DNA of 64,000 nucleotides, taken from Candidatus Omnitrophota bacterium (GTDB lineage: Bacteria; Omnitrophota; Gorgyraeia; Zapsychrales; Zapsychraceae). Made by a program: the position numbers and the translations under genes. The stretch lies in the NCBI GenBank assembly GCA_035292445.1, contig DATDQB010000002.1, positions 14,714 to 78,713 on the forward strand. Reading direction: 5' to 3'. The notes below the pieces were generated by a model, which had not been told where the DNA came from, ran no database searches, and saw nothing but the letters and a program-made list of their open reading frames with translations. Of the stretch, positions 9,681-35,014 are shown in pieces; positions within the stretch are counted from its first letter, which is position 1, and the number at the start of each line of letters is the position of its first letter.

Positions 9681-9762
9681 GGAGCCTACATCTTCGGGGT
9701 TTTAAGCAACGCGCAGCCACAAATTGATATCTAACCGTGTTCTTATCTTAAAGGAACCATTC

Positions 9763-10836
9763 ATGTTACAGAAAGTCTTCAAACTCCTCAAAAAAGCCTT
9801 CAACTATATTCTCGGTTTATTTTCCAATGATATCGGCATCGATTTAGGGACGGCCACGACCCTCGTTTATGTCAAGGGCGAGGGGGTTGTTTTGTGTGAA
9901 CCTTCGGTCGTGGCGATAGAGAAGGATACCAACCGCGTGATCGCGGTCGGAGAGGAAGCTAAAAAGATGTTAGGCCGCACGCCGGGCAATATTGTGGCCA
10001 TTCGTCCCATGAAAGACGGGGTCATTTCAGATTTTGAAGTTACTGAGGCGATGCTCAAATATTTTATCAAGAAGGTCCATAAGAGAAAAACCTTGCTCAG
10101 CCCTTCCATGGTGATCGCAATCCCTTCCGGTATTACGGCCGTGGAAAAACGGGCGGTAAGGGATTCCGCCGAACGAGCGGGGGCACGCCATGTGGATTTG
10201 ATTGAAGAGCCCAAGGCGGCCGCTGTCGGCGTAGGTTTACCGGTTGAAGAAGCCGCTGGCAATATGATCATTGATGTGGGCGGCGGGACAACGGAGTTTG
10301 CGGTCATATCGTTGGGCGGGTTAGTATACTCCAAATCGATCCGTATCGCCGGCGATGAAATGGACATGGCTGTTGTCGAATATCTGCGAAAAACATACAA
10401 CCTGATGATCGGTGAACGCACCTCTGAAGAGATAAAGATCCGCATTGGTTCCGCTTATCCGCTGGAAGAAGAGCTCAACATGGACGTGCGCGGCCGCGAT
10501 CTGATTTCCGGCTTGCCCAAAACGATTTCCGTCACCTCCGTTGAGATACGCGAGGCGCTTCAGGATCCCGTGCAGGCCATCGTGGATGCCTCAAAATCCA
10601 CCTTGGAGCAGACCCCGCCGGAGTTGGCCGCGGATCTGATCGACCGGGGGATCGTCATGTGCGGCGGCGGCTCTTTGTTAAGAGGCCTTGATAAACGGAT
10701 CGCCGAGGAAACCGGGTTGCCTGTTCATATTGCTGATGATCCCTTAACGGCGGTCGTGTTGGGGACGGGCCAAATGCTCAATATGCCTGCCCGCCTGCGC
10801 CGGAGGATCATCGTTCCTTCGAAACTTGATTTTTAA
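9763..10836 (+). CDS. mreB: rod-shape determining actin homolog MreB
   Basis: 357 aa from ATG 9763 (ORF track begins upstream at 9724); [11 protein letters not shown] phosphate-1 motif; RBS AAAGGAAC; sigma70-like promoter 9652-9680. Confidence 0.9.
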
Positions 10837-10837
10837 T

Positions 10838-10920
10838 GGTTCGACGCGCTTCGCTTGCTCACCACTAGTCGAACCACCCTGAGCGAGCGTCAGCGAGTCG
10901 AAGGGTCAGTGACAATTATC
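10838..10920 (+). repeat. intergenic repeat module III, copy 2 (between mreB and mreC)
   Basis: GGTTCGAC...GTCGAACC inverted repeat, then CCCTGAGCGAGCGTCAGCGAGTCGAAGGGTCAGTGAC. Confidence 0.5.
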
Positions 10921-10956
10921 TGATGCAAATCGAATTCCGTCTAGAACGTCTCCCCC

Positions 10957-11757
10957 GTGTTTAGAAACCGTCGAAAGAACATCGTTTATGTTTTAATCCT
11001 TCTCGTTCCTTTTCTTATCTTCGTCGGCCGCTCCAAAGCCCTTATCTCTTTAAAATTCCATTTTGTCAATGCCTTCGCCGGGCCCATTGCGATCCTTTCC
11101 CTTCCTTTGAAAGAAATCAAAAAAATGCTTTTTTATCACCGTATTTATGATGAGTATGTGCGCCTGCGTTCGGCAAATAATGTCCTGAAAGTGCGGCTGA
11201 TGGGCATGGAGGAGCTGATACACGAAAATGTGCGGCTGGAGAAGCTGCTTGATTTTAAAAGGCAATTGATCCACTCATCGGTGGCGGCGCGGGTCATCGG
11301 GCGCAACCCTTCCAATTGGAACGCGGTGATGATCATTGACAAGGGGGCGCAGGACGGCATCAAATTGGGTATGCCGGTCGTGAGCGATCTGGGGGTCGTG
11401 GGCAAGGTCACCGAGGTCAGCCCTGACTCATCGAAAGTCATTCTTCTTACAGATCCGCAGTTCAGCGTGGCGGCGCTGGTCCAGGGCCCGCGGGAAGGGG
11501 GTTTGGTGACAGGGACGCTGCAGGGGGTTTTAAGGATGCGTTATATCGATGAGGACGCGCGGATACAAATAGGAGATAAAGTGATTACCTCCAAATGGAG
11601 CACCTCATTCCCCGAGGGGCTTTTGATCGGGGAGATCATTCGTTTGGAGAATAATCCGCGTTCGCCGAACATCCAGTGCCTGATCCGGCCGGCGGTTTCG
11701 CTCTCGCAGGTAGAAGAGGTCCTGGTCATTTTAACGGAAAATGAAATCAAGGAATAA
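10957..11757 (+). CDS. mreC: rod-shape protein MreC
   Basis: 266 aa, GTG start, N-terminal TM helix, coiled coil then beta domains; directly follows mreB. Confidence 0.75.
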   Translation: MFRNRRKNIVYVLILLVPFLIFVGRSKALISLKFHFVNAFAGPIAILSLPLKEIKKMLFYHRIYDEYVRLRSANNVLKVRLMGMEELIHENVRLEKLLDFKRQLIHSSVAARVIGRNPSNWNAVMIIDKGAQDGIKLGMPVVSDLGVVGKVTEVSPDSSKVILLTDPQFSVAALVQGPREGGLVTGTLQGVLRMRYIDEDARIQIGDKVITSKWSTSFPEGLLIGEIIRLENNPRSPNIQCLIRPAVSLSQVEEVLVILTENEIKE

Positions 11758-11763
11758 TGTTCC

Positions 11764-12249
11764 ATGAAGCGCTTGATCGTTATCACCCTGTTGGTCTTCG
11801 TTTTTTTTCTTCTGGAATTCTTTATTTTTAATCTCATCGGCGGGTGGTTAACGCCGAGTCTGCTGATCCTCCTTATCATTTTCTTTAACCTTTATCTGGG
11901 GATCCGCTACGGTTTATACACGGCCATTCTGGCGGGCGTTCTCAAGGACAGCTTCAGCTCGACATTCTTTGGGTTGAATATCGTCACTTTTATCGTGTGC
12001 GCGTACTTGACGACTGTCCTGAGAAAGTACATTTATTACCGCGGCTCACGGTTGTCGCGGCTGCTCCTTGTGTTTCTCATTTGTTTGGTCGATTTTATCT
12101 GCCGTCTGGTCCTTCACGCCATATTAGGCTCTTTGGATGCGGCGGGGGCTTTTAAATTCGTCCTTTTCTCGGGGGTCGTGACCACACTCCTTGCAACCAC
12201 GTATACGTTCCAGCAGCTCAAACGATGCGTCTCAAAATTATTCGTTTAG
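11764..12249 (+). CDS. mreD: rod-shape protein MreD
   Basis: 161 aa polytopic membrane protein immediately after mreC. Confidence 0.65.
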   Translation: MKRLIVITLLVFVFFLLEFFIFNLIGGWLTPSLLILLIIFFNLYLGIRYGLYTAILAGVLKDSFSSTFFGLNIVTFIVCAYLTTVLRKYIYYRGSRLSRLLLVFLICLVDFICRLVLHAILGSLDAAGAFKFVLFSGVVTTLLATTYTFQQLKRCVSKLFV

Positions 12250-13937
12250 TCATCATCGCTTTATTCATTGTCCTTGTCCTCGAGCTTTTTTATGTCCAGG
12301 TCATCCGGGGGCAGCATTATTATAACCTGAGCTTGAACAACCGCATCCGCATTGTCCCGCTCGAAGGCTGGCGCGGGCGCATCAAGGACCGTCATGAGAA
12401 GGTATTGGCCGATAGCAGGATCTCTTACAATATCCTTGTCAGCCCGCAGGATATCGTCAATATCCAGGAGCTGTTCCAATTTCTAAGCCAGGTGCTGGGG
12501 GTGGACCAGCCGACACTTATCGATGCCTACCGCCGTAAAAAATTTACGCCGTTCGCGCCGGTTGCGGTGGCTGAAAACGTTGACCGGCAAAAGGCCATAA
12601 AAATCGAGGAAAATAAATTTCGTTTTCCTAGCCTTATGATCCAGGAAAGCTTCAAGCGGTTCTATCCTTTGGAGCGAAGCGGGGCGCACGTTATCGGTTA
12701 TGTCGGCAAGTTGTCGCAAGAGCGGATGAAATCGTTTAAGGAATACGGGTATTCGCCACCGAGCATGGTCGGTTATTCGGGGGTCGAAGAATATTACGAT
12801 GACGTCCTCAAGGGCGGCAGCGGCGGTATCCAAATTGAGGTCAATAACCGCGGCCAGCAGGTGAGGTTGCTGAGCATCAAGGAGCCTACCAAGGGAGAGG
12901 ACATTACCTTAACCATTGATGGAGAGATCCAACGGATCGCCCAGGAGCTGATCGAAGGGCGGGTGGGGACGATCGTTGTCATGGACATGGCCAATGGCGA
13001 GGTCCTGGGGCTTGTCAGCTCCCCGGCCTTTGACCCGAATTATTTTGTGGATCATAAATTCAGTGAGGAATTGAAAGCGATCCTGCGCCATCCGCTTTCG
13101 CCTTTACTGAATCGGGCGATCAAGGGGCAATATCCGCCGGGCTCGGTCTTTAAAGTGATCATGGCTTTGGGCGGGTTGGACAGCAAGAAGATCACGCAAT
13201 ATACGACGTTCAACTGTCCTGGATATTTCCAATATGGCGGTAAGACCTTCGGCGATACCTGCCGGTACGGCGAGCAGAATCTTATCGAAGCCATTGCTCA
13301 TTCGTGCAATGTTTATTTTTATCATGTAGGGTTGCTGATAGGGGCCGATTTGATCCATAAAAATGCCCGCCTGCTCACCTTGGGAGACCTGACGGGAATT
13401 GACCTGCCTTATGAAGAAAAGGGTTTTATCCCCCATCGTCGGGTTTATTTGGCGGCCAGAAAAAGTTGGTACGCAGGTAACACGATCAATATGTCCATCG
13501 GGCAAGGGGATATCCTGACAACGCCGCTTCAGTTGGTTAAGATGATGGCGACCGTCGCTAACGAAGGCAAGGAAGTCCAGCCTCATGTGATCAAAAGAAT
13601 CGGTGAGAGTACCGTCAGCAGATATGATTTTATACGTGAGGTGAAATTGGACAGCAAAATTTTTGATATCGTCAAGAAGGGGCTACGGGCCGCGGTCACA
13701 GACCAGAACGGGACGGCGCGCGATTTGAATATGAACGAAATCTTTGTGGCTGGAAAAACAGGGACCGCCCAAAGCGCCCCGAACAAAGATCATCATGCCT
13801 GGTTCGTCGGGTACGCCCAGGGGGAATCGAAAAATATCGCTTTTTGCGTCTTTCTGGAATACGGCGGTTCCAGCCATAACGCGACGGCCCTGGCCAAGCA
13901 GTTGCTTAAGCTGATGCATGAGGAAAGTTTGTTGTGA
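12225..13937 (+). CDS. mrdA: penicillin-binding protein 2 (elongasome transpeptidase)
   Basis: 570 aa; N-terminal TM, transpeptidase motifs SVFK (SxxK), SCN (SxN), KTGTA (KTG); overlaps mreD and rodA. Confidence 0.85.
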   Translation: MRLKIIRLVIIALFIVLVLELFYVQVIRGQHYYNLSLNNRIRIVPLEGWRGRIKDRHEKVLADSRISYNILVSPQDIVNIQELFQFLSQVLGVDQPTLIDAYRRKKFTPFAPVAVAENVDRQKAIKIEENKFRFPSLMIQESFKRFYPLERSGAHVIGYVGKLSQERMKSFKEYGYSPPSMVGYSGVEEYYDDVLKGGSGGIQIEVNNRGQQVRLLSIKEPTKGEDITLTIDGEIQRIAQELIEGRVGTIVVMDMANGEVLGLVSSPAFDPNYFVDHKFSEELKAILRHPLSPLLNRAIKGQYPPGSVFKVIMALGGLDSKKITQYTTFNCPGYFQYGGKTFGDTCRYGEQNLIEAIAHSCNVYFYHVGLLIGADLIHKNARLLTLGDLTGIDLPYEEKGFIPHRRVYLAARKSWYAGNTINMSIGQGDILTTPLQLVKMMATVANEGKEVQPHVIKRIGESTVSRYDFIREVKLDSKIFDIVKKGLRAAVTDQNGTARDLNMNEIFVAGKTGTAQSAPNKDHHAWFVGYAQGESKNIAFCVFLEYGGSSHNATALAKQLLKLMHEESLL

Positions 13938-15040
13938 AAAAGGATCTAGACCGTAAAATTTGGACTTATACCGTTTGTATTATTGCCGTGGGGCTGGTGG
14001 CCCTTTACAGCGCTTCCTATGAAAACGTCCGCGTGCCGCACAGCATTTTTTATGATCAACTGATTTTCTCTTTGTTTGGTTTGGGGATCATGTATTTCAT
14101 CGGCAAACTGGATTACCGTAAATTCTACGACGCGGCCTATATTTTTTATATCATTAATATTATCTTGCTTGTTCTGGTGCTGGTCAGTGGTCGGCATGCC
14201 TTGGGCGCCAGGCGCTGGCTTGAGATAGGTGGTTTAAGCTTTCAGCCGTCGGAATTTGCAAAATTAGCTGTCATTTTGATGCTGGGGCGTTATTTCAGCG
14301 ACAGGCATCCGACCCTTTCGTTCGATTTCATGACAAAGGCCCAGGCATTTTTTTTGAACCTCTTTATGCCCTTCACCATGACGGCCATCTTAATGTTTTT
14401 TATCTTCAAGCAGCCGGATCTGGGCACGGCGTTTCTTCTTTTCGGGATGTTTTTGGTCATGCTTTTTGCCAGCGGCATCGAGTACCGGTATTTTTTTGGT
14501 TTCCTGGCCTTTTGCCTTGCGTTGGTTCCCTTTGGCTGGCATGTCCTTGAGCCTTATCAAAAGGATCGGTTGCTTGTTTTCTTGAATCCCAACATTGACC
14601 CTTTGGGCGCGGGTTATACGATCATTCAATCGAAGATTGCCATCGGTTCGGGGCAGATTTTCGGCAAAGGTTGGTTGTCGGGCACACAAAACCAGCTGAA
14701 TTTTCTTCCTGAGCGCCATACGGATTTTATTTTTTCGGTTTTGGGAGAAGAGTGGGGGTTGTTGGGCACGGTATTGCTGGTGTATCTTTATTTTCGGTTG
14801 ATTCAAAATATCCTCAAGATTGCCGAGCAGGTGAAGGACCGCTTCGGCACGCTGGTTGTGGTTGGCATCGTTGCCATTTTGACGCTCCAGGTCATTATTA
14901 ATATTGGGATGGTGATCGGCCTTTTCCCTGTTGTCGGTTTGACACTTCCCTTTGTCAGTTACGGGCGTTCGTCGTTTCTGGTTTTCATTATCATGATGGG
15001 GTTTTTGCTTAATTTAAGCAAGCGGCGGACGATTTTTTAA
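13934..15040 (+). CDS. rodA: SEDS glycosyltransferase RodA
   Basis: 368 aa, GTG start overlapping mrdA stop; about 10 TM segments; FtsW/RodA family C-terminal signature (GLLPVVGLTLPFVSYGRSS). Confidence 0.85.
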   Translation: MKKDLDRKIWTYTVCIIAVGLVALYSASYENVRVPHSIFYDQLIFSLFGLGIMYFIGKLDYRKFYDAAYIFYIINIILLVLVLVSGRHALGARRWLEIGGLSFQPSEFAKLAVILMLGRYFSDRHPTLSFDFMTKAQAFFLNLFMPFTMTAILMFFIFKQPDLGTAFLLFGMFLVMLFASGIEYRYFFGFLAFCLALVPFGWHVLEPYQKDRLLVFLNPNIDPLGAGYTIIQSKIAIGSGQIFGKGWLSGTQNQLNFLPERHTDFIFSVLGEEWGLLGTVLLVYLYFRLIQNILKIAEQVKDRFGTLVVVGIVAILTLQVIINIGMVIGLFPVVGLTLPFVSYGRSSFLVFIIMMGFLLNLSKRRTIF

Positions 15041-15074
15041 AGAAATTTAGTATTATAACTAATATAATTACTAT

Positions 15075-15103
15075 TTGAGTCCTTCTGCTAGCTATAGTAA
15101 AAT
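15075..15103 (+). promoter_or_regulatory. possible promoter TTGAGT-N17-TAAAAT ahead of the pilus ATPase operon
   Basis: AT-rich 100-nt gap after rodA. Confidence 0.3.
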
Positions 15104-15142
15104 TATATCTATTATTAACTGGCTAAAAAGCGGTTCTCTATC

Positions 15143-15595
15143 ATGAAACAGTTTAAAAAGACGACTAACAAGCAGTTGGGCGAGCTTCTTATTGAGCGCG
15201 GTTTTATCAACCATGAGCAGCTTCATATCGCCATTGAACAGCAAAAGAAACACGGCGGCCTCTTGGGGGAAATCTTGGTAGATTTAAAATTCGCAACCGA
15301 GAAAGATATTGCCCAGGCCTTGACCGCCCAGTACGGATTTCCGTACCTGCCCTTATCCAATTATGAAATCGATCAAGAAGTCATTGAGTCCATCCCTGAA
15401 AATATCTGCCGGAAATTTTGTTTAATTCCCATCGACCGCATCGGCAAAAGTTTGACCCTGGCGATGGCCAACCCTTTGAATATTCAGGCCGCCGAAGACG
15501 TTGAGCTCATTACCGGCTGCAGCGTTCAGGTGTTTGTCAGCACCTCCACCGAAGTTAAACAGACGATCGACAAGTATTACAAAAAGTCTTCCTAA
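15143..15595 (+). CDS. standalone MshEN (c-di-GMP-binding) + T2SSE_N domain protein, no ATPase domain
   Basis: 150 aa; two tandem 24-residue MshEN-type motifs QLGELLIERGFINHEQLHIAIEQQ and LLGEILVDLKFATEKDIAQALTAQ (pattern [RK]LGxxLxxxGxIxxxQLxxALxxQ); then GspE-N1-like LIPIDRIGKSLTLAMANPLN...ITG...V....I..YY. Confidence 0.7.
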   Translation: MKQFKKTTNKQLGELLIERGFINHEQLHIAIEQQKKHGGLLGEILVDLKFATEKDIAQALTAQYGFPYLPLSNYEIDQEVIESIPENICRKFCLIPIDRIGKSLTLAMANPLNIQAAEDVELITGCSVQVFVSTSTEVKQTIDKYYKKSS

Positions 15596-17349
15596 TGGCG
15601 TCTTTAAAGGAACGAATAAAACAAATCCTCCTTCGCGACAAGCTCATTGAGCCGGCCCAGCTTAATAAAGCCCTGGAAGAGCAGAAGGAAAGCGGCGAAG
15701 AACTCAGTAAAATCCTTGTTAATTTGAAACTCATCGAAGAGGACACGTTAAGTCAAATCCTCAGCGAAAGTTTAGGCCTACCGCAGATTGATATTGCCCG
15801 CCTTCAGATCGACCCAAGCGTCGTTAAACTTATCCCTAAAGAATTGGCAGAGAAATATAAGCTTATCGCAGTTTCCTTGATGGGAGAAAACCTTTCTCTC
15901 GCCATGGCCGATCCACTGAACATTTTTGCCATTGATAATGTGAAGGCCTTGACGGGCTATACCATTAATCCCATTATCGGCAGGGCCAAAGATATTGCGA
16001 CGGCGATCCAGAAATATTATTACGAGGCTCAGGAGGAAGTCGAGGAAACATCCGCCAAATTCGATGAGATTATCAAAGATATTCAGTTGGAAGAGAAAAT
16101 GGAATTGGTCAAAGAGGTTGACGCGGATGTCGGAGGGCTTTCCATTGAGGAATTAACGCAAGAAGCGCCTATTATCCGTCTGTGTGACACGATCATTCAG
16201 CAGGCTGTCGTGGCCAAAGCCAGCGACATTTTTATTGAACCCATGGATAAAACGGTGCGCGTGCGCTACCGCATTGACGGCGTCATCCAGGAGATCGATC
16301 GTATGGCGAAGGTGATTCATCTGCCGTTGGTTTCGCGCATCAAAGTCATATCGACTTTGGACATATCCGAACACCGCCTGCCCCAGGACGGGCGGTTTAA
16401 AACGATCATTTCCGGGAATCGCGAAGTCGATTTCCGTGTCAACGTCCTTCCAACGGCGATGGGGGAAAAGGTTGTTTTGAGAGTTTTGGATAAAGACACC
16501 TCCGTTTTAAATATTGAGAGGCTGGGCTTTGATGCAGACTCGCTCAAGCGCTTGGAGGAATGTTATAAAAAGCCCCATGGAATGATCTTGGCTTGCGGGC
16601 CGACGGGATCGGGAAAGACAACGACGTTGTACTCCATTTTAAAATCGTTGGACTCACCAAAGAAGAATATCGTTACGGTGGAAGACCCCGTAGAATACCA
16701 AATGAAAGGGATTAATCAGGTCAATGTTAAAGCTGCTACGGGGCTGACCTTTGCCACCAGCTTGCGTTCTATTCTGCGCCAGGACCCGGATATTATCATG
16801 ATTGGGGAGGTCAGAGATTCCGAAACATTGGATATTGCCGTTAAAGCGGCTTTGACGGGGCATTTGGTCCTAAGCTCATTGCATACGACGACTGCTGCCG
16901 GTTCCATTGTCCGTATGGAAAACATGGGGATCGCTCCTTTTTTGATCTGTTCCAGCGTTTTGGTCATCATCGCCCAAAGGCTCATACGAAAGGTTTGTCC
17001 TCATTGCAAGGAGTCCTATTCTTTGTCCGCTATGGTGTCGGAGAAAGTCGGGTTAACGAGATTATATCCGAGCAAAGCCAAGTTTGAGTTGTTTCGCGGC
17101 GTGGGTTGCAAGAAATGTTTCAAGATGGGCTATGCGGGGCGGGTGGTGATCGCGGAGGTGTTGATTTTTTCTCCCAAACTTAAAGAGATCATCCTTAACC
17201 GGGCCGGAGAAATCAAACTTAAAGAAGCGGCCCGCCGGGAAGGGATGAAAACCATGCGGGAAGACGGGCTGATGAAGGCGGTGGAAGGCATCACCACTCT
17301 CGAAGAAGTCTTGCGCGTTACAGCACCGGATGAAGCGCTTAAGAAATAA
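15595..17349 (+). CDS. pilB: type IV pilus/T2SS assembly ATPase, PilB/GspE/MshE family (paralog 1)
   Basis: 584 aa; N-terminal T2SSE_N domain with degenerate MshEN motifs; Walker A GPTGSGKTTT; tetracysteine CPHC...CKKC; start overlaps upstream stop (TAATG). Confidence 0.85.
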   Translation: MASLKERIKQILLRDKLIEPAQLNKALEEQKESGEELSKILVNLKLIEEDTLSQILSESLGLPQIDIARLQIDPSVVKLIPKELAEKYKLIAVSLMGENLSLAMADPLNIFAIDNVKALTGYTINPIIGRAKDIATAIQKYYYEAQEEVEETSAKFDEIIKDIQLEEKMELVKEVDADVGGLSIEELTQEAPIIRLCDTIIQQAVVAKASDIFIEPMDKTVRVRYRIDGVIQEIDRMAKVIHLPLVSRIKVISTLDISEHRLPQDGRFKTIISGNREVDFRVNVLPTAMGEKVVLRVLDKDTSVLNIERLGFDADSLKRLEECYKKPHGMILACGPTGSGKTTTLYSILKSLDSPKKNIVTVEDPVEYQMKGINQVNVKAATGLTFATSLRSILRQDPDIIMIGEVRDSETLDIAVKAALTGHLVLSSLHTTTAAGSIVRMENMGIAPFLICSSVLVIIAQRLIRKVCPHCKESYSLSAMVSEKVGLTRLYPSKAKFELFRGVGCKKCFKMGYAGRVVIAEVLIFSPKLKEIILNRAGEIKLKEAARREGMKTMREDGLMKAVEGITTLEEVLRVTAPDEALKK

Positions 17350-17354
17350 TCGTT

Positions 17355-19064
17355 ATGGCCAGCACGCTCAAAGATAAAATCTTAAAGACATTGATCGAGA
17401 CCCAAGGGCTCAAAAAGCACGATATTGATGCGGCCATTGATCTGCAAAAAAGAAAAGGCATCAGCCTCGATAAGGCGCTCATGGAAAAGGGCCTTATCAA
17501 GGAAAAAGATTATTTGATCCTTCTGGTCCGCGAGCTTAATATCCCGTTTATTAATTTAAGCAAGTACAATATTGACCCCGCCCTGAAAGAAATCTTCCCG
17601 GAAAGAATCGCGCGCCAGTACAAAGTCATTCCCCTTTCGGCGTTGACCGACACTTTGACGGTCGCCATGAGCGACCCGTTGAACATTTTTATCATTGATG
17701 ACTTGAAGAGTATCACGGGCAAACAGATCGATGTGGTCATCAGCACCAATTCGGAAGTCGAGAAGGCGCTGGATAATTATTACGGTAAGGAATCGACGGA
17801 GTCGGTAACGGATATCAGCAAAGATATCCATGTGGAAGATTTTGAGATCGTGACGGAAGAGGTGGCCCGGCAGGATGTCGATACGGTGGTGGATGAAAGC
17901 GAAAAGGCGCCGATCATCCGGATGGTGAATTTGATCATTCAGGATGCGCTGCGCAAAAAAGCCTCCGACATCCATATGGAGCCGATGGAAGACGGGGTGC
18001 GGGTGCGTTTTCGTATCGACGGGATTTTGAGGGATGTTTTAACGGTTCCTAAGGCTAACCAGAATGCGGTGACTGTCCGCATCAAGATCATGTCGCGTTT
18101 GGACATCACCGTCAACCAGGTGCCGCAGGATGGGCGTTTTAAGTTGAAGTTGGGAAATAAAGAAGTCGATTTTCGTGTCTCCATCCTGCCGACCAGCCAT
18201 GGGCAGAAAATCGTCATGCGGGTTTTGGACAAGGTCAATTTGACCGTCGGCCTTGACGGGCTGGGCTTCAATCCCAAGGCGCTTGAGATCATGAAAGAAG
18301 GCATCAAAAAGCCGTTCGGCATGATCATTGTCACAGGCCCGACAGGAAGCGGGAAATCAACGACCCTTTATTCCATCGTCAATGCTTTGAATTCGGTCGA
18401 TAAGAATATCATCACTATAGAGGATCCGGTTGAATATCTGATCGAAGGGTTGACGCAGATCCAGGCCCGCCCGGAGATCGGCCTTACTTTTGCCGAGGGG
18501 CTAAGGGCCGTTTTGCGCCAAAGCCCCGACATCGTGATGGTCGGCGAGATCCGCGATAACGAAACCGCCGATATCGCCATTAAAGCGTCGTTAACGGGGC
18601 AGCTGGTTTTATCGACGCTTCACACCAACGATGCCTCCGGCGCTCTGACCAGGTTGGTTGATATGGACGTAGAGCCGTTTTTGGTGGCCTCCAGCATTGT
18701 CTTGGTGACCGCCCAACGGCTTTGCCGAAAGATTTGTCCGAGATGTAAAAAGGAAGAAGATGTCCCCAAGAAGGTTCTGGACCAGATGGAGTACAAATTG
18801 AAAGCGGGGACGAAATTTTATCACGGTAAAGGTTGCCCCGTGTGCAATGATACTGGATACCAAGGCCGCATTGCCGTTACCGAAATACTCGAAATCAACG
18901 ATACGGTGCGGGAAATGCTTTTGGGAGGGAAAACATCCGATGATATTAAGGAATACGCCCGTAAGGAACTCCAAATGGCAACGCTTTGGGAAGACGCGAT
19001 GAATAAATGCCTTAACGGTATCACCAGTTTGGAAGAGGTTTTACGCGTTACCAGTGAAGATTAA
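17355..19064 (+). CDS. type IV pilus/T2SS assembly ATPase, PilB/GspE/MshE family (paralog 2)
   Basis: 569 aa; N-terminal T2SSE_N; Walker A GPTGSGKSTT; tetracysteine CPRC...CPVC; too long and N-domain-bearing to be PilT. Confidence 0.85.
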   Translation: MASTLKDKILKTLIETQGLKKHDIDAAIDLQKRKGISLDKALMEKGLIKEKDYLILLVRELNIPFINLSKYNIDPALKEIFPERIARQYKVIPLSALTDTLTVAMSDPLNIFIIDDLKSITGKQIDVVISTNSEVEKALDNYYGKESTESVTDISKDIHVEDFEIVTEEVARQDVDTVVDESEKAPIIRMVNLIIQDALRKKASDIHMEPMEDGVRVRFRIDGILRDVLTVPKANQNAVTVRIKIMSRLDITVNQVPQDGRFKLKLGNKEVDFRVSILPTSHGQKIVMRVLDKVNLTVGLDGLGFNPKALEIMKEGIKKPFGMIIVTGPTGSGKSTTLYSIVNALNSVDKNIITIEDPVEYLIEGLTQIQARPEIGLTFAEGLRAVLRQSPDIVMVGEIRDNETADIAIKASLTGQLVLSTLHTNDASGALTRLVDMDVEPFLVASSIVLVTAQRLCRKICPRCKKEEDVPKKVLDQMEYKLKAGTKFYHGKGCPVCNDTGYQGRIAVTEILEINDTVREMLLGGKTSDDIKEYARKELQMATLWEDAMNKCLNGITSLEEVLRVTSED

Positions 19065-19142
19065 ATGGTTTTTGTATTTTCAATTATTGTTTTAATGGTA
19101 AAATGATTGTAAACTTTAACTGGAAAGGTTTTTAAAAATACG

Positions 19143-19598
19143 TTGATGATTCAAATAGAGGGCCAAGCGCCGCAGCGACATCTTTTGGGGGAGATATTGA
19201 TTCAACGCCGGCTCATCACCCCGGGGCAATTGCAAAGGGCGCTGGAGGTTCAGAAGAACGAGAAACGGTATTTGGGCGAAATCCTGATCGATCTGGGGAT
19301 CGTGGAGGAGCGGGATATTCTGGTCGCTTTAGTCGTCCAATGCAATCTTCCCTATATAGCAGTCCACAACTACTCCATTGATCAAAATGTCATCAGTCTT
19401 ATCCCGGTCGAGATGGCCAGGCGATATCATGTGATGCCCTTGGACCGCGTCGGTGACATCTTAAGCGTCGTTATGGCCGATCCATTGAATGAAGAAATCA
19501 AAACAGAGCTCATTAAAGCGACCCAGTGCCAGATCGCGCCTTTTATCGCGACCAAAGCAGAAATAGAAGAAGCCATCAGCCGATGGTATAAAAGCTAA
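19143..19598 (+). CDS. standalone MshEN (c-di-GMP-binding) + T2SSE_N domain protein, no ATPase domain
   Basis: 151 aa; near-canonical tandem MshEN motifs LLGEILIQRRLITPGQLQRALEVQ and YLGEILIDLGIVEERDILVALVVQ; then T2SSE_N-like ...DILSVVMADPLNEE. Confidence 0.7.
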   Translation: MMIQIEGQAPQRHLLGEILIQRRLITPGQLQRALEVQKNEKRYLGEILIDLGIVEERDILVALVVQCNLPYIAVHNYSIDQNVISLIPVEMARRYHVMPLDRVGDILSVVMADPLNEEIKTELIKATQCQIAPFIATKAEIEEAISRWYKS

Positions 19599-19604
19599 AC
19601 AACC

Positions 19605-20810
19605 ATGCCAACATTTAAATATACAGCCAAAAATAAAGACTCCCGCACCGTCGCCGGAAAGATTGTCGCCGAAAACCAGCAGGCGGTTATCGAAGAACTG
19701 CGAAAGCGCAATTTAGTCATTCTCAATCTTAATGAAACCAAAGAAGTCACGGCCAAGAAAACCGCTTTCCAGAGCAAAAAAGTCAAAGGGGAAGAGATTG
19801 TCATCTTTTCCCGCCAATTGGCCACGATGGTCGAAGCCGGCATCCCTATCCTGCAAGGGGTTAACGCGTTGAAAGACCAGGTCAATCATCCTGCCTTCAA
19901 GAAAGTTCTGGGGCAGGTGGAAAGCGATATTCAGCACGGCAGCAGCCTTTCAGTCGCGTTTTCCAAACACCCCCAGGTTTTTAGCACGTTGTTTGTCAAT
20001 ATGGTCAAAGTCGGGGAAACCGGAGGCGTTTTGTCCCAAATCTTGGACCGGATCGCCACGTATTTGGAGAAAACGCTTCGTTTGCAAAGAAAAGTCAAGG
20101 CGGCCCTTATTTATCCGGCGGTCGTTGTTTCCATGGCGATCATTATTACGGTTTTTCTTCTTGTTAAGGTTGTTCCGACCTTCTCCGGGATTTATGAATC
20201 GTTCAATGCGGATTTGCCGGCGATGACGGTAGTGCTGATTACCATAAGTAAAATTCTACGGCAGAATATTCTTTGGCTCGCGGGTGCGTTGATCATAGCG
20301 GGGTTTTTTTTAAGGCGGTGGTATAAAACAGATAAAGGAGCGCTTGTCATTGACCGAATTTTTTTAAGGTTGCCTATTTTCGGGGAACTTTTAAGGAAAG
20401 TCGCCATCAGCCGGTTCAGCCGCACGCTGGCCACGCTGGTGCAAAGCGGCGTTCCCATTCTTGAATCGTTGGATATTGTCGAGAAAACCATTGGCAACAA
20501 AGTCCTTGAACTTGTTGTCCGGGATGTCAAGAGCACGGTCCGGGAAGGAGAAAGCATCGCCACTCCTTTGGAGAAAAGCAACGTTTTCCCGCCCATGGTC
20601 ACGCGCATGATCGCGGTGGGTGAGAAAACCGGCCAAATGGAGAAAATGCTTTTAAAAATCTCCGAATTTTATGATGACCAAGTGGATGCGGCCGTTGAGG
20701 GTTTGACCAGTGTTATCGAGCCTTTGATCATCGGGTTCTTAGGGATTGTCATCGGATTCATCGTGGTTGCGTTATTCTTGCCTATCATCAATATCACGCG
20801 TTTAATATAA
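19605..20810 (+). CDS. pilC: type IV pilus platform protein PilC/GspF family
   Basis: 401 aa; two repeated GspF domains each followed by TM segments; begins MPTFKYTAKN... typical of PilC. Confidence 0.85.
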   Translation: MPTFKYTAKNKDSRTVAGKIVAENQQAVIEELRKRNLVILNLNETKEVTAKKTAFQSKKVKGEEIVIFSRQLATMVEAGIPILQGVNALKDQVNHPAFKKVLGQVESDIQHGSSLSVAFSKHPQVFSTLFVNMVKVGETGGVLSQILDRIATYLEKTLRLQRKVKAALIYPAVVVSMAIIITVFLLVKVVPTFSGIYESFNADLPAMTVVLITISKILRQNILWLAGALIIAGFFLRRWYKTDKGALVIDRIFLRLPIFGELLRKVAISRFSRTLATLVQSGVPILESLDIVEKTIGNKVLELVVRDVKSTVREGESIATPLEKSNVFPPMVTRMIAVGEKTGQMEKMLLKISEFYDDQVDAAVEGLTSVIEPLIIGFLGIVIGFIVVALFLPIINITRLI

Positions 20811-20819: not shown

Positions 20820-21818
20820 ATGAGCAAATCTCTTCATAATACGTTTTGGTTGAAAGGATGCGTCCTTCTTTGTTTTATGCTTTGTCCTGCCTTAAAGGTC
20901 GAAGCGCAAGTGCACAGCCGAAACTCACCCGTTCTATCCTTGGAATACAGCTTAAAGAGTCTATACGACAGCGCCAATGAAGTGGCGAAGAAAAACGAAT
21001 GGCTTCGCCAGGAAATCGACCGGATGAGCCAGGAAGTTACGTTTATAACGGAAGAAATGCGCTCTTTGGAAACCAACCAAACCAAGGGTATGGTTGGCCA
21101 AGCGCTGGGGGATGAGGGTTTGATGAAAGATATTCCCTGGGAAGAGAAACGCATCCAGATGATGTATGAGGATTTTATTGAATTGGATGAGGAGGAAAAG
21201 TATTTAAAGGATCGTTTTGAAGGGAAAAAAAATGACCAACAAGAGATCGAAGAGGCTGTTTATAAGCTGGAAAAAGAAGTTGCCCAGCTGGCCAATCAAA
21301 GGTTACAGGCCGAAGAGGCGCTGGGCCGTCGGGGTGACGCTGGGGAATTTGACCGGTTAAAGGACGCTTATGCCCGAGCGGCCAGGCATCTTAAGATCAC
21401 GAGAGATAAATATCAACGGTTAGAAAATCAGCACGGCCAGCCGCTGAAGGTTTTTAGCAAGATAAAGGACAGGAATATTGAGCTTAAGGGGCGGCAGGCT
21501 TTTTTGAGCAAGCAGATCCATTTGATTAACGAGCGGCAAATAAGCTTGGGGGAGGAAATCGACAACATCAAAGCAACAGATAAGGAGAGATTAAGCCTCC
21601 TTCAAAAGGACGTTGGGGATTTATCCAGGCAAAGAGAAGATTTATTAAGGGTCTTAAAACGGGCGAATGTCAAATTGGGCAAAGATTTCAGCATACCGGA
21701 TTATGATGCCCAGATCGGCCAGGTTAAGGGAAATATTGAAACGATCAAAGAGGAAAACCGCCTCCTTAAAGAAGAGCTGATTTCTTTGGAAAGCAAGATG
21801 TTGGAAGCCCCCCAGTAG
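20820..21818 (+). CDS. hypothetical secreted coiled-coil protein embedded in pilus locus
   Basis: 332 aa; N-terminal signal peptide (CVLLCFMLCPALKVEA|Q); remainder E/K/L/Q-rich predicted coiled coil. Confidence 0.5.
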   Translation: MSKSLHNTFWLKGCVLLCFMLCPALKVEAQVHSRNSPVLSLEYSLKSLYDSANEVAKKNEWLRQEIDRMSQEVTFITEEMRSLETNQTKGMVGQALGDEGLMKDIPWEEKRIQMMYEDFIELDEEEKYLKDRFEGKKNDQQEIEEAVYKLEKEVAQLANQRLQAEEALGRRGDAGEFDRLKDAYARAARHLKITRDKYQRLENQHGQPLKVFSKIKDRNIELKGRQAFLSKQIHLINERQISLGEEIDNIKATDKERLSLLQKDVGDLSRQREDLLRVLKRANVKLGKDFSIPDYDAQIGQVKGNIETIKEENRLLKEELISLESKMLEAPQ

Positions 21819-22206: not shown

Positions 22207-22353
22207 AAAATCACTTTAATTGTGCACGGGTCAATAGGTTATCATCGTTCGGCGGGATTAAGAATAACACGTTATTATTCATTCTTTACATACTCCTTGC
22301 TGGATGAAAGAAAGCCTGGCGGCCCAAAACCAGTAACAGTAAGGAGAAATAAG

Positions 22354-22749
22354 ATGAAAAGGCTAAAAAATCAAGGTTTTACGCTCGTTGAAATCATGAT
22401 CGTTGTCGCGATCATCGCTCTGTTGGCGGCTATTGCCATCCCCAACTTGTTAAGAGCGAAAATCTCCGCTAACGACGCGTTAGCGCAGAGCACGCTACGT
22501 ACCCTTTCTACGGCATCTGAGACGTTTGCTACCTCAAACAACGGTACGTATCCGGGTGACATCACATCGTTGACAGGCGCCACACCACCGTATATAAATG
22601 AACCATTTTGTACTCAAACTATTTCCGGGTTCGTATATGGTTGTACGATGGCTGCGGGTAGTTATTCGTTTGCCGCTGTCCCCGTTAACGTGGGTGTATC
22701 TGGTACGACAACGTTTACCATGACAACCGGCGGTATTTTAACTCCGTAA
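22354..22749 (+). CDS. pilA: type IVa major pilin (prepilin with N-terminal methylation motif)
   Basis: 131 aa from ATG 22354 with AAGGAG RBS; leader MKRLKNQG|FTLVEIMIVVAIIALLAAIAIP with G-1, F+1, E+5; C-terminal Cys pair; followed by strong terminator. Confidence 0.9.
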   Translation: MKRLKNQGFTLVEIMIVVAIIALLAAIAIPNLLRAKISANDALAQSTLRTLSTASETFATSNNGTYPGDITSLTGATPPYINEPFCTQTISGFVYGCTMAAGSYSFAAVPVNVGVSGTTTFTMTTGGILTP

Positions 22750-22776
22750 ATGTCATTGAGTTGAGCATCATCAGGA

Positions 22777-22803
22777 GGGGGGCTTATAAAGCCCCCCTTT
22801 TTT
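22777..22803 (+). terminator. intrinsic terminator after pilin
   Basis: GGGGGGCTT-ata-AAGCCCCCC followed by TTTTTT. Confidence 0.75.
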
Positions 22804-23063
22804 ATTGATAAAAAGAACTGTTTAAATGTTTCACGGCCAGCTTCGTTGCTTACGAAAGGGTCCCTATGAGAGAACGGTTATTCTTTATATTCATAAAAGT
22901 TTCTTCAGAGGGCTCCTCTTTACTCCTCCTGCCGCAACCGCACTGTTTTCGTTTCAAAGATGGAACAAATGGCCATTTCTATTTTTTTATGAAATACTGC
23001 TTGATGAGAAGGGCATCCTCCAATACTATATATAGAAAGAATAAATATATTTATATTACTTAT

Positions 23064-24119
23064 ATGAAAAGACTTCTCGAACGTTATTTCAATTTTATCA
23101 AAGGTTTTATCCCTTCCGAGCCACAGACCACTTCTATAGGATTAGAGATAACCCAAAATGAGTGTAAGATGGTGGAGGTCAAGAAAAGCAGCAACGGCTT
23201 TCAAGTTGTTCGTTGGGCCATTGAATCGCTTGATGAAAACAAGCCCGTCAATACGATTAAAGCCATTCTCCCATCAGATTTAACACAAGCTTCGGTGCAT
23301 ACAGCCGTTAACGGCAAGGGGACGCTCATTCGTTATATTGAAATGCCCCGGATGACCGTTGATGAATTAAGGAATTCTTTTGCGCTGGAATCCGATAAAT
23401 ATTTCCCTTTTGCCCAGGATCAAATTTATACCGATTGCTATATTTTGGACCCTACGGGCAAAACAAAACAAATGGATGTCATGGCCGCGGCCTCGACCAA
23501 AGACCTTATTGATAATCGTTTAAAATTGATGAATGAAGCCGGGGTCCAGACCGATTTTATCGGCATTAATTCGGTGGCGTTGGCGAATGTGATCAACGCA
23601 TTGGGATATGAACTGCAGGATGCCAAGCCCGAGATGACCTATGTCCTTGTCGATATCGGCGAGTCTGTAAGCAACGTGACGATTATGATTAACAAGTTTC
23701 CACGGTTTTCCCGGGATATTTTTATCGGCGGCAGGGATTTTATCAAACGAATTTCCAATGCGTTCGGCAAAAGCAGTAAAGAGGCGCGGGCTTTGTGCGC
23801 AGAGCCTTCGGAAAAAGCGAAGGAGATTATCAGCGCGTGCGAGTCGATTTTTTTGAATATGACTCAGGAATTAAGGCTCTCCTTCGATTATTTTTCTACG
23901 GAAAGAAATAAAGAAGTGGATAAAATCTATTTAACCGGCGATTATGCGCTGCTGCCGGGCATTAAACAGGCCTTAGAGGAGCATCTTGAGCTTAAAGTCG
24001 AATTATGGAACCCGTTTAACCAGTTAACATATGTGCCAGATATATCCAAGGAAGATATTCAGAAAAACGCCCACAGGCTGACGGTCGCCTTGGGATTATC
24101 TTTGTATAATTATGATTGA
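23064..24119 (+). CDS. pilM: type IV pilus assembly protein PilM (actin-like ATPase fold)
   Basis: 351 aa from ATG 23064 (ORF track extends upstream into an AT-rich region with no plausible coding signal); IGLEITQNECKMVEV N-terminus typical of PilM; followed by pilN. Confidence 0.8.
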   Translation: MKRLLERYFNFIKGFIPSEPQTTSIGLEITQNECKMVEVKKSSNGFQVVRWAIESLDENKPVNTIKAILPSDLTQASVHTAVNGKGTLIRYIEMPRMTVDELRNSFALESDKYFPFAQDQIYTDCYILDPTGKTKQMDVMAAASTKDLIDNRLKLMNEAGVQTDFIGINSVALANVINALGYELQDAKPEMTYVLVDIGESVSNVTIMINKFPRFSRDIFIGGRDFIKRISNAFGKSSKEARALCAEPSEKAKEIISACESIFLNMTQELRLSFDYFSTERNKEVDKIYLTGDYALLPGIKQALEEHLELKVELWNPFNQLTYVPDISKEDIQKNAHRLTVALGLSLYNYD

Positions 24120-24708
24120 AATTAATTTAGTTCCACAACATTTACGTAAGCGTAAACGGAAATTGTTAGGGCAACTGAAAATCCCTCTGGAGATCGTTAT
24201 CGGTTGCGCCGGGGGATTGGTCATGTTTTTGATTTTGGCTCACGTGGGGTTATTGATGGTGAATGTTTTTAGGCTTAATTATCATAAGGGTCTGAAAAAA
24301 CAATGGGACGTGATTTTGCCGGCCAAGGAGAATGTCGATAAGGTGCTTCAGGAAATGCGCGAGCTGCAGGCCAAGCATAAAGCTATCGAAAAGATCACCA
24401 CCGATGACCGGATCTCTTGGTCTCAAAAGATGAACATACTAAGTGACGGTATTGTCAGGGGCGTTTGGTTGACGCGGGTGCGCCTCAAAGAAGGGGTCTT
24501 TTTTATCGAAGGAAGCGCCATTTCAAAACAAAATGACGAGATGATCAATGTTCACAGCTTCACTTCGAATTTGAAGAACGAAAAGAGCTTCTTGGAAAAA
24601 TTCAGCGATTTGGAGCTGGGCTCTATTCAGCGGCGCAATATCGGTAAGACGGAGATAGCCGATTTTCTTATAACCGCTGAGCTAGTTAAGGAAACCGATG
24701 GCGAATAA
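24112..24708 (+). CDS. pilN: type IV pilus assembly protein PilN
   Basis: 198 aa; N-terminal IEINLVPQHLRKRK then a single TM, classic PilN start (INLLP-like). Confidence 0.8.
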   Translation: MIEINLVPQHLRKRKRKLLGQLKIPLEIVIGCAGGLVMFLILAHVGLLMVNVFRLNYHKGLKKQWDVILPAKENVDKVLQEMRELQAKHKAIEKITTDDRISWSQKMNILSDGIVRGVWLTRVRLKEGVFFIEGSAISKQNDEMINVHSFTSNLKNEKSFLEKFSDLELGSIQRRNIGKTEIADFLITAELVKETDGE

Positions 24709-25306
24709 ATATTCTGATCAATTGAATAAATATTTTGTTAAATTGCAAGACATGGACCAAAAGAATTGGTATTATATATTGGCTGGTCTTCTGGTTTTGG
24801 TCTTTGTGTTGGATTATTTTACTTTGATGAAACCGCAGCTGGGTGCTTTGTCTAAGATCAGTCCGGAAATTAAGATTTTGTCGGATAATTTAAAACGGAC
24901 AAAGACGGACATTGCGCGGATCACTGAGTATAAGGATCAGATTCAAAAGCTTAAAGAGGGCTTTGATGCCTTAAGGTTGCGGGTACGGACCAAACAGGAA
25001 GTTCCGCTTGTTTTAGAAAAGATTTCCCGTATCGCCAATAAGAATCGAGTGAAGATAGATCAAATTATGCCTAATCCTCTGCAGCAAAAAATCCTTTTAG
25101 AGGGCAATGACAAGACATATTTTGATCTACCTATTATCATAGAGGCCAGAAGCGGTTATCATGATTTTGGTCGGTTTATTAACGAATTGGAGAATGGCGA
25201 TATTTTTCTCAAGGTTGATGGGTTTACGATCGCTGCGATGCCAGGGTCCCAATTAAACGCCATACAGCTGACGCTAAAGACGATTGTTGTTGAAGAGAAC
25301 AAATAA
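24698..25306 (+). CDS. pilO: type IV pilus assembly protein PilO
   Basis: 202 aa; single N-terminal TM, coiled coil then periplasmic domain; position between pilN and pilP. Confidence 0.7.
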   Translation: MANKYSDQLNKYFVKLQDMDQKNWYYILAGLLVLVFVLDYFTLMKPQLGALSKISPEIKILSDNLKRTKTDIARITEYKDQIQKLKEGFDALRLRVRTKQEVPLVLEKISRIANKNRVKIDQIMPNPLQQKILLEGNDKTYFDLPIIIEARSGYHDFGRFINELENGDIFLKVDGFTIAAMPGSQLNAIQLTLKTIVVEENK

Positions 25307-25316
25307 AAGGTTTGGC

Positions 25317-25661
25317 ATGCGTCTTATATGGTTTGTCATCTTGAGTTTATTGGCTATCCCTGCTATTGCGCAGGAGGCGCGTTTTATGTATGATGATCAC
25401 GGTAAACGGGATCCATTTTTGCCTTTGGTGGGCGAGGGCGGCAACATCATCAGCTATGAAACCGATTTTACGGTTTCCGATCTGGTTCTAGAAGGGATCA
25501 TGGCCGGTTCGGAAGGGGCTCATATCGCCATCATCAACGGCAGGGTCGTCAAGGCAGGAGATCAGTTGGGCAATTTTTTCATCCAGGATGTGCAGCCGGA
25601 GTCGGTTATTATTAAAAAAGACAACCTAAAATTCGAACTAAAATTGGAAAAGGAGGATTAA
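25317..25661 (+). CDS. pilP: type IV pilus assembly lipoprotein PilP-like
   Basis: start taken at ATG 25317 giving signal peptide MRLIWFVILSLLAIPAIA (ORF track starts at 25284 overlapping pilO); conserved KRDPFLPL motif typical of PilP. Confidence 0.65.
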   Translation: MRLIWFVILSLLAIPAIAQEARFMYDDHGKRDPFLPLVGEGGNIISYETDFTVSDLVLEGIMAGSEGAHIAIINGRVVKAGDQLGNFFIQDVQPESVIIKKDNLKFELKLEKED

Positions 25662-25662
25662 C

Positions 25663-28503: not shown

Positions 28504-28636
28504 CACCGCCCATAAAAATTCATTGTAAATTTCGCGATTTTGAATACAATGATAAGACAATAAATTATTAATATTAATATAAAAGTACCTCCCATGCTAG
28601 GAAGGTATTTTCATGATGGAGAAGGAGGATTAAGGT

Positions 28637-28948: not shown

Positions 28949-28964
28949 GTAAGGTTGCTATAGT

Positions 28965-31009: not shown

Positions 31010-31017
31010 AGGCAAAT

Positions 31018-32855: not shown

Positions 32856-32874
32856 GGAATCGAAAGGACAAGCG

Positions 32875-34889: not shown

Positions 34890-34899
34890 AATATTTTAT

Positions 34900-34927
34900 T
34901 TGACAAATACGATAAATTTGCGATAAT
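34900..34927 (+). promoter_or_regulatory. candidate sigma70 promoter for rpsA (TTGACA-N16-GATAAT)
   Basis: seen at 34900-34905 / 34922-34927, about 90 nt upstream of rpsA ATG. Confidence 0.45.
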
Positions 34928-35014
34928 GGGGTACTTTTTAGAGGTGTCTAACTCTAACTATTTGAGCTAGTTACTTCTTAAAAGAATCGTTCTAAAAAGA
35001 AGAGGTATTTATTC

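Follow-up and report, generated by a model that had tools for sequence, protein, structure and literature searches.

The MshEN domain of PilB/GspE-family ATPases recognises cyclic di-GMP (c-di-GMP) through two 24-residue motifs with the consensus (R/K/L)LGxx(L/V/I)(L/V/I)xxG(L/V/I)(L/V/I)xxxxLxxxLxxQ, which are joined by a 5-residue spacer (Wang 2016; Neissner 2024). The catalogue of Wang et al. comprises MshEN-T2SSE and (MshEN)2-4-T2SSE proteins, as well as MshEN joined to REC, HD-GYP, glycosyltransferase and further domains, and its table has no entry for a free canonical MshEN that accompanies PilB genes. It also includes the stand-alone Pseudomonas aeruginosa protein PA3740, which consists of MshEN_N and a highly diverged N1 domain, is an experimentally tested c-di-GMP binder and affects swarming. 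A 2024 review of PilB discusses MshEN regulation in cis and the PilB/TfpB pair of ATPases, and treats the role of the N1 domain as poorly understood. The Omnitrophota are uncultured and mostly ultra-small bacteria, whose type IVa pili are thought to mediate host or prey attachment. Genomics papers on this group report near-universal type IVa pili and leave tandem PilB, MshEN and c-di-GMP unmentioned. Here, we analyse a stretch of 64,000 nucleotides (64 kb, hereafter the window) from a Candidatus Omnitrophota bacterium (GenBank assembly GCA_035292445.1, contig DATDQB010000002.1, positions 14,714 to 78,713 of the forward strand), in which two small MshEN proteins, S1 and S2, flank two tandem PilB-type ATPases, A1 and A2, and are followed by the platform protein PilC.

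S1, A1, A2, S2 and PilC are real co-directional genes of an Omnitrophota type IVa pilus cluster. The five-gene layout given in an initial annotation, which was made from the DNA letters alone, is confirmed on the + strand with all open reading frames (ORFs) present:

15143..15595, + strand: S1, 150 aa; free-standing complete MshEN domain, predicted c-di-GMP receptor; core conserved component
15595..17349, + strand: A1, 584 aa; PilB/GspE-family ATPase with a degenerate MshEN N-domain and the full catalytic motif set
17355..19064, + strand: A2, 569 aa; second PilB/GspE-family ATPase with a degenerate MshEN N-domain, first His-box His replaced
19143..19598, + strand: S2, 151 aa from TTG; second free-standing MshEN domain, apparent lineage-specific paralogue of S1
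19605..20810, + strand: PilC platform protein, 401 aa; PF00482 (T2SSF) in two stretches, E 2.8e-67

The stop codon of S1 overlaps the start codon of A1 by 1 nt (TAATG), and the two genes lie in different frames. The spacing is 5 bp between A1 and A2, and 6 bp between S2 and PilC. For S2, the probable start codon is the ATG at 19146 (150 aa) and not the TTG at 19143.

In Pfam, S1 and S2 match MshEN (PF05157) alone, with E-values of 2.4e-20 and 4.8e-21, respectively. PF05157 has a gathering threshold of 23.1 bits, which all four MshEN domains of the operon pass (S1 72.8, S2 75.0, A1 73.2 and A2 82.7 bits). The NCBIfam model of the MshEN c-di-GMP-binding motif, NF053729, has a cut-off of 38 bits and is passed by S1 (65.4) and S2 (58.2), by A1 by score only (47.1), and failed by A2 (19.2). 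The match of the small proteins to T2SSE_N/MshEN profiles that had been expected from their sequences is thus borne out by both models. AlphaFold2 models of S1 and S2 reached a predicted local distance difference test (pLDDT) score of 85.8 and 86.2, and both show a four-helix bundle followed by an alpha/beta N1-like subdomain. For both models, the top match in the PDB is 5HTL, the structure of Vibrio cholerae MshE with c-di-GMP (TM-scores 0.80/0.85 for S1 and 0.77/0.82 for S2), and the superpositions have a root-mean-square deviation of 2.1-2.6 Å. The next fold matches are the GSPII domains of Thermus PilF.

S1 has about 3,967 homologues, the best 120 of which are all 148-162 aa long and 74-100% identical to it, and the exact S1 protein is recorded from a Candidatus Omnitrophota metagenome-assembled genome (MAG). 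Pairwise identity among the four MshEN domains of the operon is 32-41%. A neighbour-joining tree built from 166 domains places S1 and S2 in two monophyletic groups that are sisters to each other, apart from the N-domains of A1 and A2. This points to S2 as a paralogue of S1 rather than a truncated ATPase, an assignment that is indicative rather than firm because the internal branches of the tree are short. A truncated copy of A1 or A2 was ruled out as the origin of S2 on the same grouping, and with the same short branches.

Taken together, we are very confident that the pilus motor operon includes S1 and S2 as genuine stand-alone MshEN components under selection. Alternatively, the small ORFs might be assembly artefacts or remnants of decayed or frameshifted ATPase genes, a worry already voiced in the initial annotation, and both do look like the first quarter of a PilB protein (positions 2-139 of TIGR02538). 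However, both adjoining ATPases are full length and have N-domains of their own, and the 1-nt overlap with A1 and the 6-bp gap to PilC leave no space for a decayed ATPase body. The best homologues are intact, an S1 orthologue is present in 53 genome loci, and S1 and S2 fall into clades of their own. Conservation and gene boundaries thus rule out a frameshift or pseudogene origin, and we give this explanation practically no weight.

The 53-residue MshEN motif was mapped onto alignments of orthologues of S1 (n=53), S2 (n=17), A1 (n=47) and A2 (n=45). Gly3 and Gly32 are present in 53/53 S1 orthologues, Leu2 in 52/53, Gln24 in 46/53 and Gln53 in 52/53, and the Leu-triangle positions are hydrophobic in nearly all 53. 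Both Gln and the LG of both motifs are kept in all 17 S2 orthologues. In A1, Gly3 is replaced by T, K or Q, Gly32 by S or V, and Gln53 by G or Y; in A2, the replacements are L or I, D or K, and E, respectively. These Gly residues are substituted in all but 1-2 of the A1 and A2 orthologues, and Gln53 in all A1 and 42/45 A2, with the hydrophobic core positions of the N-domains largely retained. At the residue level, the c-di-GMP motif therefore appears to be split phylum-wide, predicted to be competent in S1 and S2 and degenerate in A1 and A2. As the A1 and A2 N-domains hold their fold without these Gly and Gln residues, the invariance of the same residues in S1 and S2 argues for a constraint imposed by a ligand. 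In V. cholerae MshE, the substitution G11L abolishes c-di-GMP binding and G40I lowers it 72-fold.

In S1 of the window, the spacer reads KKHGG, and L2, G3, L6, L17, a hydrophobic residue 21 and Q24 occur in both halves of the motif. The motif-initial residues are Q11 in motif I, which lies outside the consensus, and L40 in motif II, which lies inside it. S2 has L14 and Y43 at these positions, and the turn Gly of its motif I is replaced by R. Across the orthologues, the motif-initial residues are Q or P and L in S1, with motif II opening with L in 51/53, and L and Y or F in S2. PilF's GSPII-B domain binds c-di-GMP at 6 nM while carrying K and L at the motif-initial positions, and its K167L variant at 2 nM. 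The consensus has been widened to (R/K/L)LG, and it has been proposed that a hydrophobic residue at the first position predicts very high affinity. Because GSPII-B binds tightly with K and L, the missing motif-initial Arg would not disqualify S1 and S2 as predicted binders. The earlier description of the motifs of S1 and S2 as near-canonical thus mostly holds, except that the first-position Arg is absent from both motifs. That of the motifs in both ATPases as degenerate is correct at the residue level, where both ligand-contacting Gly are gone, although A1 passes NF053729 by score.

The module was compared across 54 genome loci, nearly all of which are labelled Omnitrophota or are mis-binned 'Planctomycetales' MAGs. 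The order S1-A1-A2-PilC is found in 40/54 loci, with no order violations; the remainder are cut by contig ends. The gene-neighbourhood check proposed along with the initial annotation thus finds small MshEN-only proteins adjoining pilB genes in related genomes. Of the 40 complete loci, only 16 have S2. In the others, A2 and PilC are 1-195 bp apart, so that S2 is truly absent there. PilC always follows A2, S2 or an HD-GYP gene. The conserved core is S1-A1-A2-PilC, and the mirror-symmetric arrangement, which had been put forward as the defining feature, does not hold up as such and is a lineage-specific elaboration.

Conservation was ranked by the median identity of each gene to the window, as synonymous sites would be saturated at such divergence. 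For close relatives, the medians are 76% for S1, 73% for PilC, 70% for RodA, 69% for A2, 68% for A1 and 53% for S2. For distant relatives, they are 55% for S1, 49% for A2, 47% for A1, 46% for PilC and 45% for RodA, and the value for S2 (58%) comes from one locus only. By this measure, no other protein of the cluster is as constrained as S1. Among the motor proteins, S2 evolves faster and is the least constrained, with PilM lower still at 50%.

The S1-A1-A2-PilC module is evolutionarily plastic. One locus (L058, 98-1034) has an extra free MshEN upstream of S1, and in P0127 (215 aa) an extra MshEN_N bundle is fused to an S1-like domain. In L056/L057 (5489-5962), a single-domain response regulator lies directly upstream of S1. 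Some contigs with the module (L024, L049, L003/L009/L014 and others) are labelled Lysobacterales, Methanosarcinales or 'uncultured Planctomycetales/Planctomycetia', and these labels are probably binning or taxonomy-assignment errors. As a class, stand-alone MshEN proteins are abundant in metagenomes. The representative-library match list also contains proteins of 1,000-1,325 aa with 4-7 MshEN-like repeats (e.g. P0121, P0124, P0132 and P0158), and two proteins, P0163 (454 aa) and P0164 (723 aa), in which MshEN is joined to C-terminal regions of unrelated type.

A link between S1 and A1 is suggested by natural gene fusions. In P0131 (765 aa), found in the representative-library search, an N-terminus with 47% identity to S1 is followed by a Gly/Ser/Asn/Lys-rich linker, and the part after the linker is 48% identical to full-length A1 versus 40% to A2. 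The gene order at its locus is [S1-A1 fusion][A2-like][PilC]. Further S1-linker-A1 fusions are P0272 and P0273, the latter named Omnitrophota, and the nearest unfused relatives of both are 574-aa Omnitrophota A1 proteins. These fusions provide a Rosetta-stone argument for a physical partnership of S1 and A1. Together with the translational coupling of the two genes, they lead us to regard docking of S1 with A1 as more likely than competition.

The module also has links to enzymes of c-di-GMP turnover. An HD-GYP phosphodiesterase gene occupies the slot of S2 between A2 and PilC in two loci (L032, where it encodes a REC-HD-GYP protein, and L059). In L033, a HAMP-GAF-GGDEF cyclase heads the operon in the order cyclase-PilT-S1-A1-A2-PilC. 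An ENA contig likewise has HAMP-GAF-GGDEF at its head and otherwise mirrors the window, with the order RodA-[GGDEF]-S1-A1(584)-A2(568)-S2-PilC-(515-aa protein)-pilin. In a fifth locus, L044, a GGDEF gene lies about 8 kb upstream.

A1 and A2 each combine MshEN with the T2SSE domain (PF00437; E 1.5e-138 for A1 and 3.1e-133 for A2), and their ATPase domains are 48% identical. The best model for both is the PilB equivalog TIGR02538, which scores 638.2 bits for A1 and 619.4 bits for A2 and whose cut-off of 675.65 is missed. The GspE model TIGR02533 (cut-off 630.25) gives 568.8 and 596.7 bits. Both ATPases also fall below the cut-offs of the TfpB model NF053534 (466.7 and 454.3 bits versus 850) and the PilT/PilU model TIGR01420 (180.2 and 191.5 bits versus 319.1). 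On these scores, A1 and A2 are best described as ATPases of the PilB/GspE clade and not as certified PilB equivalogs. Walker A, the Asp box, Walker B with the catalytic Glu, the arginine-finger region and the Cys4 zinc motif are kept in the 47 A1 and 45 A2 orthologues, which confirms the two tandem full-length ATPases with Walker A and tetracysteine motif that had been annotated here.

The two ATPases differ in their His box. A1 keeps both His residues, the first in 47/47 orthologues. In A2, the His box (around residues 414-426) reads TG[Q/E]L in 43/45 orthologues and the first His is never present, while the His equivalent to H420 of Geobacter PilB (GmPilB) is kept in 45/45. In Geobacter PilB, H420 contacts the gamma-phosphate, and H413 packs against T411 at the subunit interface. 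As the H420 equivalent is kept and the H413 equivalent is replaced, A2 is probably active and may differ from A1 in inter-subunit coupling.

PilT and PilU retraction ATPases are about 350 aa long and have neither MshEN nor the zinc motif. A tblastn search of the whole window found no other T2SSE-family ATPase, PilT included, and a third ATPase or PilT in the window was ruled out on this basis. The initial annotation had noted the lack of PilT at the locus, which is right for the window, but deeper-branching relatives have PilT directly upstream of S1. A true PilT (TIGR01420, 486 bits) is found there in L033, and PilT-like genes in L026, L028, L030 and L060.

As the best explanation, we propose with moderate confidence, on comparative sequence evidence, a split (MshEN)n-PilB architecture in which S1 senses c-di-GMP in trans for a twin-ATPase motor. 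S1, and in this lineage also S2, would be trans-encoded regulatory N-modules of the twin PilB-type motor. The N-domains of A1 and A2 would have kept the MshEN fold for docking and lost the ligand-contacting glycines, and S1 would have kept an arginine-independent binding motif of the kind that is linked to high affinity. S1 is presumably co-translated with A1 and most likely associates with its N-terminal region, such that the two polypeptides would rebuild the (MshEN)2-ATPase design. GGDEF and HD-GYP enzymes, encoded within the operon in some relatives, would make and degrade the c-di-GMP that loads S1 and S2. Once loaded, S1 and S2 may gate the engagement or activity of A1 and A2 on the PilC/PilM platform and thereby control pilus extension. 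That c-di-GMP sensing has been split off into separate proteins, as first suggested from the sequence, gains strength from the motif partition, the fusions and the embedded cyclase and phosphodiesterase genes. In a more elaborate version, S1 would be an obligatory c-di-GMP-loaded subunit that joins the non-equivalent A1 and A2 in one composite motor on the single PilC, as a heteromeric or alternating complex. Where the locus lacks PilT, as in this lineage, the messenger would then switch the same motor from extension to another mode, for instance priming or retraction, and back. We regard this version as speculative and improbable.

Several observations weigh against a trans-acting c-di-GMP sensor. 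The evidence for it is comparative throughout. Motif I of S1 opens with Q or P, outside the experimentally extended consensus, and the turn Gly of motif II is Lys in S1 of the window and Gly in just 25/53 orthologues. The conserved ligand-contact residues could instead serve a protein-protein interface. The S1-A1 fusions are rare, with 3 clusters among thousands, and c-di-GMP enzymes are encoded in or directly beside the module in just 4 of about 60 inspected loci. In the window itself, a regular-expression scan, which diverged domains could escape, found no GGDEF, EAL or HD-GYP genes, and Rfam at gathering thresholds found no c-di-GMP riboswitch. Moreover, S2 follows A2, so that the logic of S1:A1 is not simply transferable to S2:A2.

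Some of these points are shared by an alternative in which S1 and S2 act independently of c-di-GMP, as structural or adaptor subunits. They would be extra N1/MshEN domains that connect the ATPases with PilM or PilC or build an N-terminal ring, the motif being conserved as a protein interface. MshEN and N1 domains are known as interaction modules, and complexes of this type, PilB(N)-PilZ (7LKO) and GspE-N1:GspL (2BH1/4PHT), are among the fold matches. S1 lacks the canonical Arg, Q or P at position 1 of motif I is without validated precedent, and the authors of the PilF study regard it as possible that c-di-GMP is a structural cofactor and not a regulator. We nevertheless consider a purely structural role unlikely: the ATPase N-domains retain their fold although they lack the Gly and Gln residues whose invariance in S1 and S2 points to a ligand, the NF053729 scores of S1 and S2 lie well over the cut-off, and several lineages have GGDEF and HD-GYP genes within the module. 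The same enzymes, which are specific for c-di-GMP, also argue against the sensing of another nucleotide, e.g. 3'3'-cyclic GMP-AMP (cGAMP) or another cyclic dinucleotide. The first motif positions do depart from the canon, and V. cholerae MshEN binds cGAMP weakly, with a dissociation constant of 330 µM. However, both half-sites keep the Gly residues whose backbone-amide contacts select guanine O6/N7, which makes such a specificity very improbable.

S1 and S2 could also act as decoys or competitive inhibitors that contend with A1 and A2 for the PilM/PilC platform, with c-di-GMP tuning the competition in a negative control of extension. The full MshEN fold is common to S1/S2 and the ATPase N-domains (32-35% identity), so that the same partners are possible. 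S2 lies directly before PilC, with a 6-bp gap, and extra MshEN copies have been gained or lost at varied positions (L058, P0127), as modulators would be. Set against this, S1 is universally present and the most conserved protein in the cluster, which would be unusual for an accessory inhibitor, and its covalent fusion to A1 by a long flexible linker suits a cooperating module better than a competitor. We therefore judge a decoy function rather improbable and retain S1 as a c-di-GMP receptor that works together with A1 as the preferred reading.

The module is embedded in a wider cluster, in which the following further features were assigned:

15041..15142, + strand: AT-rich intergenic gap between rodA and S1; probable operon promoter region
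20820..21818, + strand: coiled-coil protein with a hydrophobic N-terminus, 332 aa; no Pfam family above threshold
22222..22749, + strand: type IV pilin or pseudopilin; PF07963 (N_methyl) at ORF residues 49-73
22866..24119, + strand: PilM (actin-like, platform ATPase-fold); PF11104 (PilM_2), E 4.3e-45

Upstream of S1, the window carries mreB, mreC, mreD, PBP2 and rodA (9724-15040). This elongasome operon, mreBCD-mrdA-rodA, adjoins S1, and the adjacency of rodA and the pilus motor is kept in about 30 Omnitrophota loci (L001-L027, L059 and L060 are named), some of which have a GGDEF, GAF or PilT gene inserted in the gap. In relatives, the gap between rodA and S1 is occupied by a GGDEF cyclase and/or PilT. 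In the window, it contains two weak sigma-70-like sites, at 15075-15103 and 15115-15144 (9/12 matches). No terminator-like site was found on the + strand between S1 and 22090, and a terminator-like hairpin lies at 22773-22801, after the pilin ORF.

PilC has its top NCBIfam matches to PilC models, at 417 and 397 bits, which is under their cut-offs. It is followed by the coiled-coil protein, the pilin with its N-methylation motif, and PilM. Weak homologues of the coiled-coil protein (21-26% identity) are located after PilC in 10 loci, and the 515-aa protein at this position in the ENA contig has only a faint leucine-zipper match in Pfam (CENP-F_leu_zip). The ORF call of the pilin is probably over-extended at its 5' end, with a prepilin leader, MKRLKNQG|FTLVEIM, that starts near 22354. 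The same applies to PilM, where the Pfam match begins at residue 92 and the orthologues are 323-392 aa long. The ORFs from 24112 to 26982 are candidates for PilN, PilO, PilP and PilQ by position and sequence only, and the PilN candidate has no Pfam match.

A 'symbiotic' F-type ATPase has been reported beside many Omnitrophota pilus clusters. It was ruled out here: the nine ORFs scanned in 27175-37797, which lie downstream of the PilQ candidate assigned by position (25663-26982), are all housekeeping genes. They encode RNase E/G, Obg, a glutamate 5-kinase-like protein, aldehyde dehydrogenase, a cytidylyltransferase-like protein, phosphoglucomutase, an acyltransferase, ribosomal protein S1 and tyrosyl-tRNA synthetase. 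The sole Rfam matches in the window at gathering thresholds are tRNA genes at 38073-38145 and 38432-38504.

The S1-A1-A2-PilC module would be the main pilus motor of the Omnitrophota. It amounts to a natural experiment, in which the receptor domain of a PilB has apparently been split from its enzyme, is under the strongest constraint of the cluster, and has occasionally been re-fused, sometimes in the company of its own cyclase or phosphodiesterase. The module bears on the role of the MshEN/N1 domain in PilB catalysis and platform docking, which the small soluble proteins make amenable to study, and on the question why certain pilus systems require a pair of extension-type ATPases. A further prediction is that metagenomes contain a large class of stand-alone MshEN receptors.

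Among the described systems, PA3740 resembles S1 and S2 in that it is small, stands alone and has an MshEN-type domain but no ATPase domain. By its description, on which this comparison relies, its N1 domain has diverged, whereas S1 and S2 have canonical PF05157 subdomains, C-subdomain included. No pairing with a pilB operon is described for PA3740, whereas S1 and S2 are embedded in a motor operon and co-conserved with it. We found no prior description of a stand-alone MshEN beside PilB, or of tandem PilB in Omnitrophota, in the literature searched. To this extent, the architecture is undescribed, as the initial annotation had it; yet it appears as a split form of the known (MshEN)n-T2SSE design, and with PA3740 a stand-alone protein was already known. 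In the FimX-PilZ-PilB system of Xanthomonas and Pseudomonas, a separate c-di-GMP sensor likewise relays in trans to the PilB N-terminal domain, and 7LKO is among our fold matches. There, however, the sensor is a degenerate EAL protein with a PilZ adaptor, while the presumed sensor here is a paralogue of the ATPase N-domain. Acinetobacter baylyi, with PilB and TfpB, also uses two PilB-family ATPases for one type IVa machine. In contrast to that pair, neither A1 nor A2 is a TfpB by the model cut-off, and PilB and TfpB are not described as tandem genes or with free MshEN proteins.

The MshE-type ATPases (V. cholerae MshE, Myxococcus xanthus PilB and Clostridium perfringens PilB2) share with S1 and S2 the domain family, the fold (TM-score of about 0.8 to 5HTL) and the 53-residue layout of two motifs with a 5-residue spacer. 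They place type IV pilus extension under the control of c-di-GMP, as proposed here. Unlike in the Omnitrophota, their sensor is in cis; S1 and S2 lack both motif-initial Arg, and the Omnitrophota ATPases appear to have lost the site.

The closest likeness is to the (MshEN)n-T2SSE proteins, such as Thermus thermophilus PilF with its three GSPII/MshEN domains and the Clostridial (MshEN)2-T2SSE. In both settings, there are several MshEN domains per PilB-type ATPase. Only some of these domains are competent for c-di-GMP (2/3 in PilF) or, in the present module, predicted to be so, and the Arg-independent type of motif with a hydrophobic first position is common to PilF GSPII-B and this module. The fused S1+A1 form of a minor Omnitrophota lineage resembles the Clostridial proteins. 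In contrast to this family, the predicted competent MshEN is here a separate polypeptide, S1, and the domain in cis is degenerate. Two tandem ATPase paralogues are served by one PilC, and in this lineage a second free MshEN, S2, has been added downstream of A2. Because two genes, in different frames, encode S1 and A1, the locus in the window stands outside the (MshEN)n-T2SSE family, but would work like one of its members.

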